Shown piece by piece: positions 31,917 through 38,881 of a stretch of 39,993 nucleotides of DNA (positions are counted from its first letter, which is position 1; each line of letters begins with the position of its first letter). The position numbers were made by a program, and so were the translations under genes. Source of the stretch: Minisyncoccota bacterium. Its GTDB lineage: Bacteria > Patescibacteriota > Minisyncoccia > Phycocordibacterales > UBA9973. The stretch is taken from assembly GCA_025453495.1 (NCBI GenBank), contig JALOQM010000005.1, positions 1 to 39,993 on the forward strand, in the 5' to 3' direction. The notes under the pieces were generated by a model. That model saw nothing but the letters and a program-made list of their open reading frames with translations, had not been told where the DNA came from and did not search any database.

Positions 31917-32097
31917 TCTAATTTTCAATTATTTGAATAAGTACATTAGTATTGTTTGTCTGCAAAATACACTACTTCTATGGAAGAATACAGTTTGCAT
32001 TCTGTTTGAAAATAGGTAGAATAAGAAAGCTTAATGAATATAGACCTGTAGCTTTTTTGGTAAATGAGAGCATATAGGTAAAATATAAATAGAATAT

Positions 32098-32170
32098 GGG
32101 CCTGTAGCTCAGTTGGTAGAGCAGTGCTTTTGCAAAGCAAAGGTCAGGAGTTCGAATCTCCTCAGGTCCA
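32098..32170 (+). tRNA. tRNA-Ala(TGC)
   Basis: Acceptor GGGCCTG/CAGGTCC with the G3:U70 Ala identity pair, anticodon loop TTTGCAA, T arm AGGAG-TTCGAAT-CTCCT; CCA not encoded. Confidence 0.97.
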
Positions 32171-32178
32171 CATTAGAA

Positions 32179-32205
32179 GACTTCGCTTCCAAAGTGAGGT
32201 CTTTT
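32179..32205 (+). terminator. Terminator after tRNA-Ala
   Basis: GACTTCGCTT-CCA-AAGTGAGGTC followed by TTTT. Confidence 0.7.
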
Positions 32206-32328
32206 ACTTTGAAAAAGCTACACATTTCGGTGGTTCCAAAAAAATTATTTTGATAGACCAATCCTGATGGAAATTGGAACCATTGCAAGAACTAAAGTGT
32301 GAGCTTTTTGAGATGATTAATGCTCTGT

Positions 32329-32363
32329 AAAAAAAGAACCCCTGCCGAATTACAGGCAGGGGT
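32329..32363 (-). terminator. Terminator of the candidate ncRNA
   Basis: Minus strand: ACCCCTGCC-8 nt-GGCAGGGGT-TC-TTTTTTT. Confidence 0.85.
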
Positions 32364-32712
32364 GAAAATGCGTAAGCCCATCAGTGGACGTTTAACCACG
32401 TCGGATGTCACGTCAATTTGACACTGACTTTCTCTTAGAAACCATTGGCGCACGGTCCCAGTTTCTACTGGCTCACTTAATTGAAAGTGGTTCTTGTTCT
32501 TTCTTCCTTCCTCACACATTTGTGGCAGTTTCTTTGATAATCAGATTTCTCTTTTACAAAGAATAGGAATTAACCTATCTTGTGAACTTAATCACTGCCT
32601 CACGGCACAGGTGAACTTCTTTGGGCGGTGTGTACAAGGACGATTTTTGCGCCTGTTAAGACTTGCTTTCGCTGTTGTCCCCCAAAGCACTTTCTAGTAA
32701 GGTGCAATTTCA
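32329..32712 (-). ncRNA. Candidate structured ncRNA mimicking 16S rRNA (h35-h40 plus nt 1388-1404)
   Basis: Own promoter and terminator, no convincing ORF, exact 17-nt CCTTGTACACACCGCCC, and a collinear covarying h35-h40 module at 32496-32616. Confidence 0.75.
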
Positions 32713-32717
32713 TTTTT

Positions 32718-32746
32718 ACACTAACAAAAAATCTCTCCGAAATCAA
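32718..32746 (-). promoter_or_regulatory. Promoter of the candidate ncRNA
   Basis: Minus strand: TTGATT-17 bp-TAGTGT with an extended TG. Confidence 0.65.
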
Positions 32747-32824
32747 TAGGAATAACAGAGAAAACTAGCCCTTCTATAATGTCGGAAAACTCCTAGATAT
32801 AGTGGTGCGTAGTGTAGGCTAAAT

Positions 32825-32860
32825 AAAAAACCCACCAAATAGTTTATCTATTTTGGCGGG
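32825..32860 (-). terminator. Terminator for the minus-strand gene cluster
   Basis: Minus strand: CCCGCCAAAATAG-5 nt-CTATTTGGTGGG followed by TTTTTT; insulates the ncRNA from upstream transcription. Confidence 0.7.
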
Positions 32861-32893
32861 GCTTGGCTTTGTGTGGTCGAACTATTCAGTACT

Positions 32894-33097
32894 CTATGGT
32901 TGTGCGTAATAGGATTCATTGATTGCTACATAATCCCAAATCATTTGTTGCCATACCTGTTCTATCGAATAGATAGTTATTGTTTCTGACTCATTTTGTT
33001 CAAGTATGTTTCCTAATGTTGGACCATCCGTATCATCATATTTGAACCATTTATTGTTTTTGGCAATAACAATATGGGTAGGTGTCTTGAACATCAT
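32894..33097 (-). CDS. Small hypothetical protein (67 aa)
   Basis: ATG at 33097 overlaps the stop of the previous ORF (ATGA); ends just before a terminator. Confidence 0.55.
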   Translation of the reverse strand: MMFKTPTHIVIAKNNKWFKYDDTDGPTLGNILEQNESETITIYSIEQVWQQMIWDYVAINESYYAQP

Positions 33098-33450
33098 GTT
33101 GTGTTCACGAGGTCTGAGTCGCAAGTGAATTGTGCAAATGATAGCAAGTAGGGTATCTTCTCTTTTGAATTGACCCATGGTATTTCAATCAATCCTATAA
33201 CAGCACTCCAAGTGAAAACCTTACAGCGGTCTTCTCGTTTGGTGCATCCTCTAATTTTGCCTTGATATTCTTTGTAGCCTCCTTCTTCCATTTCAGGGCT
33301 ATGTTTTGATACGATAACCTCTCTTTTTTCTGGAAGCTTGGGGTAAGTAACACTTCTGTTCTCAATGTCAATTTTGACATCTCCAAAAATGTTCATTTTT
33401 AAAAACAAGGTTTTGAGTACTGTTTTTCCGCCTCTTGCAATAGTATTCAT
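33094..33450 (-). CDS. Hypothetical protein (118 aa)
   Basis: AT-rich ORF with ATG start, coupled to the next ORF. Confidence 0.65.
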   Translation of the reverse strand: MNTIARGGKTVLKTLFLKMNIFGDVKIDIENRSVTYPKLPEKREVIVSKHSPEMEEGGYKEYQGKIRGCTKREDRCKVFTWSAVIGLIEIPWVNSKEKIPYLLSFAQFTCDSDLVNTT

Positions 33451-36197: not shown

Positions 36198-36808
36198 ATG
36201 TATACACTGCGAGACAATGATCTTTTTCTTAATACTTCAAATGAAGGAAAAAACGTGTTCTAAAGATTCAGGACTTGCCGAAAGAGTCAAAGCCTCGTGA
36301 ACGCACACTTGCTGGAGCAACAAATCCTACTCAGTTTGTAAAAGAACTTGATATCCTAGTCGGCAAAGCACTACAGTTTGTGGCATGCACAGAACTTGGT
36401 CGAAGATTCTTCAAAACACGTCAGGGTGGACTACTGGTTGTGCGCACAGCAAAAGATGCATATCGGTATTTCAAAGATGTGGAATCGCTCCCGAAAGAGC
36501 ATTTGTGTGGCATCTGTATTGATAGACACTATAGGGTTGTTCATGATGAGGTGATCTCGATTAGTACAATCAATACTAATATCATTCACCCGAGAGAGGT
36601 GTTTAAGCCTGCTATGGAGTATGGGGCTGCTGCTGTGGTGCTTGCGCATAACCACCCATCGGGTATTACCAAACCAAGTCAGGCAGATATAGATGGTACG
36701 CGTCAACTTGTCGAGGTCGGTAAAATGCTTGGCATAAATTTGATCAATCACATCATTATCGACAAGGATTCTTTTGTAGGTTTTAATATTGATTATTCAT
36801 CAGAATAA
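36198..36808 (+). pseudogene. radC: RadC/JAB-domain gene, frameshifted and apparently internally deleted
   Basis: IQDLPKESKPRE, HPREVFK and HNHPSG..PS..D motifs; the ATG 36198 frame stops at 36263 and the body lies in the -1 frame. Confidence 0.75.
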
Positions 36809-36919
36809 AAACATGCGTTTACTATACTATATTCCTTCATGTGGATATATCACTACCGTGGCTTGTATTACAGTGCCTTACTTTTAAAATAGCGGCAGTG
36901 TGTACTATACTGATAGTAA

Positions 36920-38881
36920 ATGAATTCTGAAGATACAGTAACTTATTTTGGCGCGGCCGATTATCGTGGCAAAAAAACTAAATTTGGCATCAAAGCCAAG
37001 GATCGAGCTCGCCATGTGTATGTCATCGGTAAGACTGGTATGGGTAAGTCGACCCTACTTGAAAACATGGCCGTACAAGATATTTTGAGCGGGGAAGGCA
37101 TGGCATTTATTGATCCACACGGTGGCACGGCCGATAAACTACTCGAATATATCCCTGAAGAGCGCATCAAAGACGTTGTCTATTTCGCGCCATTTGATCT
37201 TGAGAATCCAGTCTCATTTAATGTGCTTGAAGATATCGGCTTTGACAAGCGTCATCTCGTTGCAAGTGGTCTCATGAGTACTTTTAAGAAAATCTGGGTT
37301 GATGCCTGGAGTGCTCGCATGGAGTACATATTGAACAACACACTTCTCGCATTACTTGAATATCCAAACTCGACGCTGCTTGGTGTCAACCGCATGCTTG
37401 CAGAAAAAGACTTCAGAAATGCTGTTGTTGCAAATGTGAAAGATCCTTCAGTGAAGTCATTTTGGACCGAAGAATTCGCAAAGTTCTCCGCAAGTTATAT
37501 GCAAGAAGCAGGCGCTGCGATTCAAAATAAGATTGGACAATTCACTGCCAATCCAATTATTAGAAATATCATCGGCCAACCCAAGTCGAGTTTTGATATT
37601 CGTAAACTCATGGATGAGAAGAAAATTCTCATCATGAACCTCTCTAAAGGACAGATTGGTGAACAGAATGCATCACTTTTGGGCGGTATGCTTATCACGA
37701 AGATTTATCTTGCTGCCATGTCACGCGCTGACATGAGCGGATTTGAACTTAAAAAACTTCCGAATTTTTACTTTTACGTCGACGAATTTCAGTCGTTTGC
37801 AAATGCGACCTTTGCAGACATTTTGTCAGAAGCGAGAAAATATAAACTCAATCTGACGATCGCGCATCAATATATCGAGCAAATGGAGGAAGAAGTGCGC
37901 GATGCGGTGTTTGGGAACGTCGGTACCACTATTGCTTTTCGCGTTGGTCCTTTTGACGCTGAAGTGCTTGAGAAAATTTTTGCGCCGACCTTTTCACGTG
38001 AAGACCTCGTGAATATCAGTAAGTACCAGATCTATTTGACGCTTATGGTGGACGGGATTGGCTCACGACCTTTCTCAGCAGCGACGCTTGATGCTATACC
38101 TCTTCGTGAAGATTCCAACAAAGAACGAGTAATCCGAAGCTCACAAGAATTATTTGGTCGGCCAAGGAAGATAGTTGAAGAAGAAATCAATGCATGGTTT
38201 GCGCCAATCACACCGCCACAGCGCCCTCGTCCGCAAGGAGAAGGAGAAGGAAACACTGGGCGTCCGCGCTCATTTATCGAAGAAAGGGCACCACGTTCTG
38301 CTGATCGATTTGAAAAGCCACGACCTGAATATAATCGTGATGGACCATCTCGCCCGCGTCCTGCTGGAGATGGAGAAGTACATACTCGTCAGCCACGCCC
38401 TCATTCATTTACCGAAGATAGACCACAGAGACTACAACACCAGAAGGCGGAAGAAAAGAAGCCGTTTGCAAGTCTCAAAGACATGCTTGCTATGCTTGAG
38501 AGTGGTGAAGTGAAAGAAGTCAAAGAAGTACCTTCTATTCCTCCGCAAACACATCCACCAAGATCTCCTGTGCCGACACGATCTGAGAATAGTCGTCCTA
38601 TGAGACACCCACAACATGAGCGATCAGCCACACGAGCACCAGTGCAGTCAACTCCTCGTACAATTCCACTTTCGTCATTGAAACAACCACCAGTACAATC
38701 ACAAAATCTCTCTGCACTCAGAGACGTACTTGCATCAGTGACAAAGGCAACCGAAGCTCCTGTTTCAACACCCGCGCCTCTTCCAAAACAACAAGAAGTA
38801 CCTAGATCTGCTACCGTTCCTTCGATACAACAGCAAAGAAAAGAAGTCTCGGAAGATGTCCTTCGAAAGATTTTGGAGTAG
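36920..38881 (+). CDS. Type IV coupling protein / HerA-FtsK-like (VirD4/DUF87-type) ATPase with a long disordered tail
   Basis: DRARHVYVIGKTGMGKS, FIDPHG, YVDEFQSF, LSEARKY, IAHQY, VFGNVGT; ~220-aa P/R/S-rich C-terminus; TATACT 8 nt before the ATG. Confidence 0.88.
   Translation: MNSEDTVTYFGAADYRGKKTKFGIKAKDRARHVYVIGKTGMGKSTLLENMAVQDILSGEGMAFIDPHGGTADKLLEYIPEERIKDVVYFAPFDLENPVSFNVLEDIGFDKRHLVASGLMSTFKKIWVDAWSARMEYILNNTLLALLEYPNSTLLGVNRMLAEKDFRNAVVANVKDPSVKSFWTEEFAKFSASYMQEAGAAIQNKIGQFTANPIIRNIIGQPKSSFDIRKLMDEKKILIMNLSKGQIGEQNASLLGGMLITKIYLAAMSRADMSGFELKKLPNFYFYVDEFQSFANATFADILSEARKYKLNLTIAHQYIEQMEEEVRDAVFGNVGTTIAFRVGPFDAEVLEKIFAPTFSREDLVNISKYQIYLTLMVDGIGSRPFSAATLDAIPLREDSNKERVIRSSQELFGRPRKIVEEEINAWFAPITPPQRPRPQGEGEGNTGRPRSFIEERAPRSADRFEKPRPEYNRDGPSRPRPAGDGEVHTRQPRPHSFTEDRPQRLQHQKAEEKKPFASLKDMLAMLESGEVKEVKEVPSIPPQTHPPRSPVPTRSENSRPMRHPQHERSATRAPVQSTPRTIPLSSLKQPPVQSQNLSALRDVLASVTKATEAPVSTPAPLPKQQEVPRSATVPSIQQQRKEVSEDVLRKILE

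Follow-up and report, generated by a model that had tools for sequence, protein, structure and literature searches.

What is an exact 17-letter piece of 16S ribosomal RNA (rRNA) doing outside the rRNA genes of a small bacterial genome? The question is raised by a stretch of 39,993 nucleotides (nt) from a Minisyncoccota bacterium (assembly GCA_025453495.1, contig JALOQM010000005.1, positions 1 to 39,993; hereafter the window), whose genome is of the Candidate Phyla Radiation (CPR) type and comprises 685 kb in 12 contigs, being 97% complete. The plus strand of the window at 32623-32639 reads GGGCGGTGTGTACAAGG. Judged from the sequence and its relatives, this 17-mer is a genuine part of a predicted stand-alone, structured RNA gene of about 390 nt on the minus strand (32335..32725), which ends at an intrinsic terminator. 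We hold with good confidence that this RNA, in its strand, modularity, folds and rRNA likeness, is a string of shrunken rRNA modules.

The RNA gene and its limits

The reverse complement of the 17-mer is identical to positions 1388-1404 of Escherichia coli K-12 rrsA (17/17) and has no match in rrlA, which agrees with the exact match and the numbering given in the first-pass annotation of this DNA. In 16S rRNA the 1388-1404 stretch comprises the neck and the top of h44. The window holds no second match, even with two mismatches, and none of 100 dinucleotide-preserving shuffles of the window yielded one at the same tolerance. The other letters quoted by the annotation are also in place on the minus strand, namely ACAGG at 32656-32652, GGGGGACAACAGCGAAAGC at 32683-32665 and UGGGC at about 32379-32375.

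At 32363-32338 the minus strand has an intrinsic terminator, a nine-pair stem with a U-run after it, so that the 17-mer is read as CCUUGUACACACCGCCC in the sense of the transcript. Homologues were sought in a set of 151 genomes of the same tiny-genome CPR family, in which G000 is the genome of the window, and in metagenome contigs. Equivalent terminators stand 3' of the homologues in G026, G112, G152, G089 and on contig L036, and every member is closed in this way. The G-U pairs of the covarying helices described below are compatible with the minus strand only. The terminator U-run gives the 3' end of the gene, and the 5' end is approximate; similarity to G026 runs from about 32722 onward. The interval contains no convincing long open reading frame (ORF) and no Pfam match. 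A search of the whole window with Rfam at gathering score returned two transfer RNAs (tRNAs) only, and searches of 32150-32950 and 32364-32615 at E up to 10 gave terminator-like noise or nothing, with no family match.

The sequence is contiguous in other assemblies. A contig of 12,922 nt from run X1, which may be the source sample and is hence not independent, covers 32000-33000 with 0 differences. In run X3, from another study, a 268-nt contig of a diverged relative spans 32561-32807 (23 differences, 11 gaps). G152, G112 and G026 show the same arrangement. A chimera of rRNA reads joined to unrelated DNA would be a natural suspicion, given that metagenome bins often misassemble conserved rRNA stretches, and a join between 32616 and 32623 had been named as the place to look. 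Contigs of two runs span the site, one of them from another study, and the layout is found in four other genomes and two metagenome contigs; a chimeric join is therefore excluded. We regard this explanation, to which we had given a negligible probability, as refuted.

A 530-loop-like hairpin in domain 3

Domain 3 (32364..32482, minus strand) is composed of a closing helix, a 5' hairpin and a hairpin resembling the 530 loop of 16S rRNA. Two covariance models were built from the window, G026 and G112, with R1 covering the 5' domain and R2 the 3' domain, and the window scores 139.5 bits with R2. Independent sequences reach 119.6 bits (G152), 105.7 bits (G089) and 39 bits (L036), and the domain is 88% identical between G000 and G112, which represent two genera. 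A structure based on 16S helix h18, laid over six domain-3 sequences, has 96% of its cells paired, as against 32-42% with slid partners. The pairs are changed on both sides in 14 of 31 cases, and the observed values are reached by 0 of 500 shuffles on four of five measures. For five helices the model had guided the alignment; the pseudoknot and a two-pair stem lie outside the model.

The copy of the h18 or 530-loop hairpin spans 32380..32428 (minus strand), with a pseudoknot between GUC at 32422-32420 and GAC at 32402-32400. All 18 cells of this three-pair pseudoknot are paired across the six sequences, the middle pair being C-G in three and U-A in three. It is the rRNA-type 530 pseudoknot, equivalent to 505-507/524-526. 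The G152 copy matches the small-subunit (SSU) model at 491-534 (12.5 bits, E=0.095) with both stems kept, and 21 of its 24 letters equal E. coli rrsA 514-537; in the window copy the 530-loop letters are degraded. These comparisons describe domain 3 as a predicted structured RNA, the helices of which are kept by compensatory changes in independent homologues, and indicate that purifying selection acts on the structure of the RNA.

A 23S-like twin hairpin and the 17-mer in domain 1

Domain 1 (32608..32694, minus strand) scores 96.6 bits with R1 and consists of a closing helix P1, a twin hairpin resembling one of 23S rRNA, and the 17-mer (32623..32639). The independent R1 scores are 68.4 bits for G152 and 39.5 bits for G089. 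The 5' strand of P1, CUUUGGG (32681..32687), pairs with the 3' strand CCCAAAG (32619..32625), which takes in the last three letters of the 17-mer. P1 is paired in 94% of the cells of five sequences, with one U-A to U-G change and one two-sided change. A long-range pairing of GCCCA in the 17-mer with UGGGC near the 3' end of the RNA had been suggested, but it does not hold, as CCCAAAG instead pairs locally with CUUUGGG and UGGGC sits in the covarying closing helix of domain 3.

The twin hairpin (32649..32673), formed by a hairpin with a GAAA tetraloop and a second hairpin, is recognised through homology to G026 and G152, whose copies match the large-subunit (LSU) model at 669-694 (E=0.11) and 670-694 (E=2.1), respectively. 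In G026, 24 of 30 letters equal E. coli rrlA 627-656. The first-pass annotation had likened the GGGGGA...AGCGAAAGC hairpin to the 16S h7/h8 junction or to the h27 hairpin; the LSU 669-694 match, the agreement with 23S in G026 and the fact that R1 also finds the 23S of G162 assign it to 23S instead.

The interior of domain 1 can be folded in two ways. The h28-like stem of ACAGG with CCUUGU, seen before in the window alone, survives to the extent that 24 of 25 cells are paired; it has no two-sided change, however, and the rival fold covaries more. Together with a GGGAC/GUCUU stem it is 95.5% paired with little covariation, and its values are reached by 72-93 of 500 shuffles. The alternative, GGACNN/NNGUCC around the 23S-type twin hairpin, is 89% paired with four two-sided changes, its values being reached by 5-16 of 500 shuffles. 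The central ACACA of the 17-mer is unpaired in both. Within the RNA, the 3' end of the 17-mer would thus close domain 1 and its 5' end would pair locally, with the ACACA centre predicted to be single-stranded as in 16S rRNA. A scan of the genome for complements of the single-stranded ACACACCG, with an 8-mer and a 9-mer as candidate antisense targets, gave scattered matches only.

Identity to the 17-mer is 17/17 in the window and G152, 16/17 in the X3 contig (a single change at 32634), 15/17 in G112 and 14/17 in L036. Strict invariance among homologues, as anticipated for the motif, is not found, the full series being 17, 17, 16, 15, 14, 10 and 6 of 17, which, read strictly, is the outcome that the annotation had named as a refutation; what does recur is the ACACACCGCCC core, common to the window, G152 and the distant L036, where ACACACCGCCC followed by AAAG is kept although the interior of that domain differs.

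A reduced 16S head-like segment in domain 2

Domain 2 (32493..32616, minus strand) resembles a shrunken segment of the 16S head. A BLAST search over 61 relatives gave one clear homologue, G026 (71% identity, E=6.9e-26), where the copy matches the SSU model at 1050-1188 (25.7 bits, E=6.7e-6) and the nested helices are kept but shortened. The hairpin with the UUAAGU loop (32595-32582) shows two-sided changes at three of its four pairs between the window and G026.

Homologues and modular order

Exact-pattern scans of genome and metagenome contigs found few loci (L018, L019, which is G112, L035 and L036). R1 matches nine of the 151 family genomes, of which G000, G112, G026, G152 and G089 are strong; G093, G063 and G067 are weak, and the ninth match is the true 23S of G162. 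The metagenome scan added one further distant RNA, which is carried by two contigs, L035 and L036. Viral contigs were scanned twice by pattern, with 0 and 7 matches; none of the seven fits R1, no viral relative was found, and a phage origin was rejected.

The domains differ in their occurrence. Domain 1 (32694-32608) is present in all strong members, domain 2 is optional, being found in the window and G026 and absent from G112, G152 and G089, and domain 3, which G026 lacks, is shared by the window, G112, G152 and G089. The order is reversed in L036, where a domain-3-like hairpin of the 530-loop type precedes the domain-1-like unit and the RNA lies between ileS and argS.

In the window the RNA carries, in this order, the LSU 669-694-like module, SSU 1388-1404, the SSU 1050-1188-like module and the SSU 491-534-like module. 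This bears out the permuted order reported from the sequence of the window, with the 1388-1404 stretch lying 5' of the head-like segment (32616-32493), the homologue of the SSU 1050-1188 match of G026. Since this is not the order of the modules in rRNA, the simple deletion of an rRNA gene does not account for the locus, as the annotation had also argued, and the locus reads as a real RNA of rRNA-like modules. We describe the RNA as a chain of independently folding modules, namely the 23S domain-II twin hairpin, the 16S 1388-1404 stretch, sometimes a reduced head, and the 530-loop hairpin with its pseudoknot, which are joined in an order found in no rRNA and can be lost or rearranged between relatives.

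Relation to the rRNA genes of the genome

The genome has complete rRNA genes of its own. Its 16S gene (C1:7833-9383, 1551 nt, 1373 bits, model positions 1-1533) holds its own 530 loop and 1400 region, and its 23S gene (C6:43934-47747, minus strand, model positions 1-2925) has its own, different version of the 600-region twin hairpin. This 23S gene measures 3814 nt against 2925 in the model; about 110 nt of the surplus form one block at gene positions ~670-790, just ahead of the 600-region hairpins.

The 16S gene of the genome reads CTTGTACTCACCGCCC, one letter off the 17-mer. This 16-letter family form occurs in 87 of the 151 genomes at 88 places, with T for the universal A at E. coli position 1396; it was placed inside a 16S gene for G000 alone (C1:9242-9257), and many other matches lie at contig ends, where rRNA genes are often found. 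The universal form CTTGTACACACCGCCC occurs in two of the 151 genomes, both times inside the RNA described here. The 17-mer was therefore not copied recently from the 16S of the family. Within the 1392R-type primer site, the family form has one mismatch. In the blastn search and the local alignment to the genome's own 16S and 23S, nothing except the 16-mer was significant, and an origin as a relic of these genes was rejected.

Membership in known classes of rRNA locus can be judged from the same comparisons. There is no collinear SSU match (RF00177) at the gathering score of 50, the local matches of the relatives being 12.5 and 25.7 bits; the order of the segments differs from that in a 16S gene or pseudogene, and the genome's own rRNA genes keep all the segments that the RNA carries, unlike in fragmented rRNA supplied in trans. 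The RNA fits no rRNA gene, no collinear pseudogene, no trans-supplied rRNA fragment and no Rfam family.

Several observations count against the description as a string of rRNA modules or against a general role for it. Neither the SSU nor the LSU model matches the window RNA, even at E up to 10, and the similarity of this RNA to its own rRNAs is not significant (the score is reached by 6 of 200 shuffles for 16S and by 16 of 200 for 23S). Its copy of domain 2 has no Rfam match and owes its rRNA identity to the homology with G026, so that the rRNA likeness of the window beyond the 17-mer is, at the level of sequence, a likeness through relatives. Two of the Rfam matches of these relatives are themselves weak (E=0.095 and 2.1). 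For the inner part of domain 1 two candidate folds stand side by side. The 17-mer is poorly kept in G026 (10/17) and G089 (6/17), and the exact 17-mer is thus not needed for the role of the RNA. The distribution is rare and patchy as well: R2 matches only five of the 151 family genomes (G000, G112, G152 and G089, with G034 weak) and none of 150 further genomes in an order-wide sample (149 from other families, one from the same family), and the RNA was not found in G001 (82% complete), which belongs to the same genus. To these may be added that the role proposed below is drawn from the anatomy of the RNA alone.

Possible function and alternative explanations

The RNA might act in trans by presenting folded rRNA binding sites to molecules whose usual partner is the ribosome. 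Ribosomal proteins could be among these, as could assembly or modification factors or a toxin or drug that targets the ribosome. For the 530 hairpin the candidate ligands would presumably be uS12 or uS4; domain 2 might bind head proteins, and the 1400 stretch assembly or modification factors that act at the neck. The genome encodes an RsmH homologue; GidB/RsmG was not found in it. Display away from the ribosome is suggested because the modules, like strung beads, would fold alone and differ in their number and order, and because no protein gene travels with the RNA. The complete 16S and 23S genes make a ribosomal role for it unnecessary. It also counts for a decoy that the family contains other mini-copies of rRNA protein-binding domains as separate genes. 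A function as an off-ribosome decoy or sponge of rRNA binding sites is the one we favour, though tentatively and as somewhat less likely than not; the structural description and the decoy mechanism taken as one statement strike us, as a compromise, as evenly balanced. A special form of the idea, to which we give a low probability, is that the RNA is a decoy of foreign-type rRNA, recognisable by the universal A at 1396, and binds something aimed at ordinary ribosomes. The family would have altered its own decoding region, and the RNA would show the ordinary 530 loop, 1400 region and head helices to a toxin or antibiotic from the cell, its neighbours or its host, acting as an immunity or carrier RNA.

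The locus might also be a functionless, decaying relic, either a scrambled old second rRNA operon or captured rRNA fragments in a variable region by a tRNA gene. The patchy distribution, with domain 3 in five of 151 genomes, would suit decay, as would the loss and shuffling of modules between relatives, the tRNA genes adjoining the locus in the window, G152 and G026, the broken small ORFs alongside and the degraded 530-loop letters of the window copy. Decay would not, however, be expected to leave at least four helices and a pseudoknot preserved by compensatory changes across six sequences, an intrinsic terminator in each homologue and 88% identity of domain 3 across two genera; the L036 copy, moreover, lies between ileS and argS in no island, and the genomes are compact (0.5-0.9 Mb). 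We consider a relic unlikely. That the 17-letter identity is a coincidence, with the letters set by the helices of an unrelated structured RNA, is an explanation with little going for it overall, although parts of the evidence lean its way. The CCC end takes part in P1 and there is a local partner for CCUUGU or GUCC, the motif falls to 10/17 and 6/17 in two homologues, the window's own 16S differs from the 17-mer, the window RNA as a whole does not resemble its own rRNAs significantly, and by our own arithmetic chance would produce a given 17-mer about once across some 250,000 windows of 40 kb. SSU or LSU models also recognise three other modules of the RNA family, though, one of them at E=6.7e-6 with nested structure, the rRNA pseudoknot is retained in the 530-loop copy, the ACACACCGCCC core recurs in the distant L036 despite a different domain interior, and the shuffles of the window (0 of 100, with two mismatches allowed) do not give the motif.

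Two further explanations both seem to us highly improbable. As a ribosome component the RNA would contribute rRNA segments in trans, in the manner of the fragmented, scrambled rRNA genes known from some organelles. The sense orientation and the rRNA-like folds of the modules would fit this, and CPR ribosomes are generally known to be unusual; yet the genome's own 16S and 23S are complete, with their own 530 loop, 1400 region and 23S 600-region, and the RNA is absent from most relatives. If, on the other hand, the plus strand were functional, an antisense RNA pairing with 16S 1388-1404 could result, the plus strand being perfectly complementary to the universal motif. It is the minus strand, however, that carries the terminators and the G-U pairs of the covarying helices; the plus strand has no terminator downstream, and its complementarity to the organism's own 16S includes one mismatch. 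A string of shrunken rRNA modules thus remains the reading we prefer for the RNA itself.

Surroundings of the gene

The RNA gene lies between tRNA-Ala (32098-32171, plus strand), on which it converges, and two small ORFs (32894-33450, minus strand); uvrC, small unnamed ORFs and a two-component system are among its neighbours. The two small ORFs overlap in different frames, encode 118 and 94 amino acids without a Pfam match, and may be one broken gene. No conserved protein neighbour was found, as the neighbours differ in every genome compared and the adjacent small ORFs match no Pfam family. A RadC-like gene and a VirD4/TraG-type coupling-protein gene (window 36275-38881) are located about 4 kb from the RNA, and a close homologue of that coupling protein in G026 (L018 4853-7003) lies about 3 kb from the RNA there, a loose synteny.

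Directly upstream of the RNA is a separate conserved element of about 100 nt (32727-32829, minus strand), single-copy in G000 and 73-75% identical to sequences in G013 (L004 ~1500-1615) and G011 (L005 ~1500-1610), where no rRNA-like RNA follows it. A 151-nt contig of run X2, from another study, is identical to window 32726-32804. The element may be a junction or promoter element.

The known housekeeping RNAs RNase P RNA, transfer-messenger RNA (tmRNA), signal-recognition particle (SRP) RNA and 6S RNA give no Rfam match at the locus. A divergent RNase P RNA or tmRNA was rejected, the genome having its RNase P RNA on C9 and its tmRNA on C6. A divergent SRP RNA was likewise rejected, with no SRP-like motif at the locus and the Ffh M domain (PF02978) not found in the genome. 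In the 97%-complete G000 there is no match for SRP RNA (RF00169, RF01854), 6S RNA (RF00013) or PF02978, and RF00169 also gives none in the four relatives G026, G013, G011 and G112; the signal-recognition particle is either very divergent or lost in these bacteria.

Related rRNA-like loci in the family

Other pieces of LSU rRNA occur in the family as small free-standing genes that end in a terminator. G067 carries a unit of about 175 nt (L028 1474-1648) that matches LSU 234-470 with 69.7 bits and has a 669-694-like twin hairpin grafted on a hairpin tip. G034 (L044 358-447, 610-989) has tandem units resembling LSU 37-483 and LSU 2126-2215, with a terminator after each, the LSU 2126-2215-like unit also having its own promoter-like site. 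G007 (L045 373-622) has an LSU 37-482-like copy as an extra beside the full 23S, and in G063 (L046 233-643) an LSU 46-470-like piece lies inside a 198-kb contig. The survey of LSU mini-genes covered 40 family genomes with three candidates scored per genome, so that its counts are lower bounds and not a census. The window RNA seems to belong to a wider group of genes for rRNA domains off the ribosome, and the family may hold a class of free-standing genes of this kind, comprising the mosaic RNA, 23S domain-I mini-genes and an LSU 2126-2215 mini-gene.

Comparison with known systems

If the description is right, the RNA would be of a new kind, a separate bacterial gene in which folded mini-copies of several rRNA centres, taken from both subunits, follow one another. 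It would offer a handle on how tiny host-dependent bacteria manage ribosome-binding factors, defend their own ribosomes or attack those of others. On the practical side, a sequence resembling a universal primer site together with weak SSU and LSU matches can confuse rRNA-based annotation, binning and chimera checks. The titles and abstract openings returned by a full-text literature search contain no description of a comparable RNA, and outside the ribosome rRNA is, to our knowledge, imitated only by short sites that act in cis in the mRNAs of ribosomal proteins.

The RNA is like bacterial 16S in its 17/17 identity at 1388-1404, in the 530-loop copy (h18, about 500-545 in 16S), which keeps the outer, inner and two-pair stems and the pseudoknot, and in the head-like module, which corresponds to head helices around 1050-1200 and keeps the nested helix order of SSU model 1050-1188. 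Unlike 16S, it is non-collinear, far shorter, mixed with a 23S-like piece, ended by its own terminator and separate from the complete 16S; unlike the 16S of its own family, which has U at 1396, it carries the universal A.

Leaders of ribosomal-protein operons, such as the L1, S8, S15, L10 and L20 sites, are cis-acting rRNA mimics in the 5' untranslated region (UTR) with one site each. The RNA shares with them a short folded copy of an rRNA protein-binding site outside the ribosome, the binding here being putative, and differs from them in being free-standing, terminator-ended and without a downstream gene, with several sites of both subunits. It does not lie in the 5' UTR of a ribosomal-protein gene but ends at the terminator at 32363-32338. 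Organelles with fragmented and scrambled rRNA genes have no rRNA other than the sum of these pieces; the RNA shares the sense orientation and permuted order of such pieces, but its genome also has complete 16S and 23S. With 6S RNA and CsrB the RNA has no sequence or fold in common, but in the proposed mode it would resemble them, as a stable RNA mimicking the nucleic acid to which a cellular factor naturally binds.

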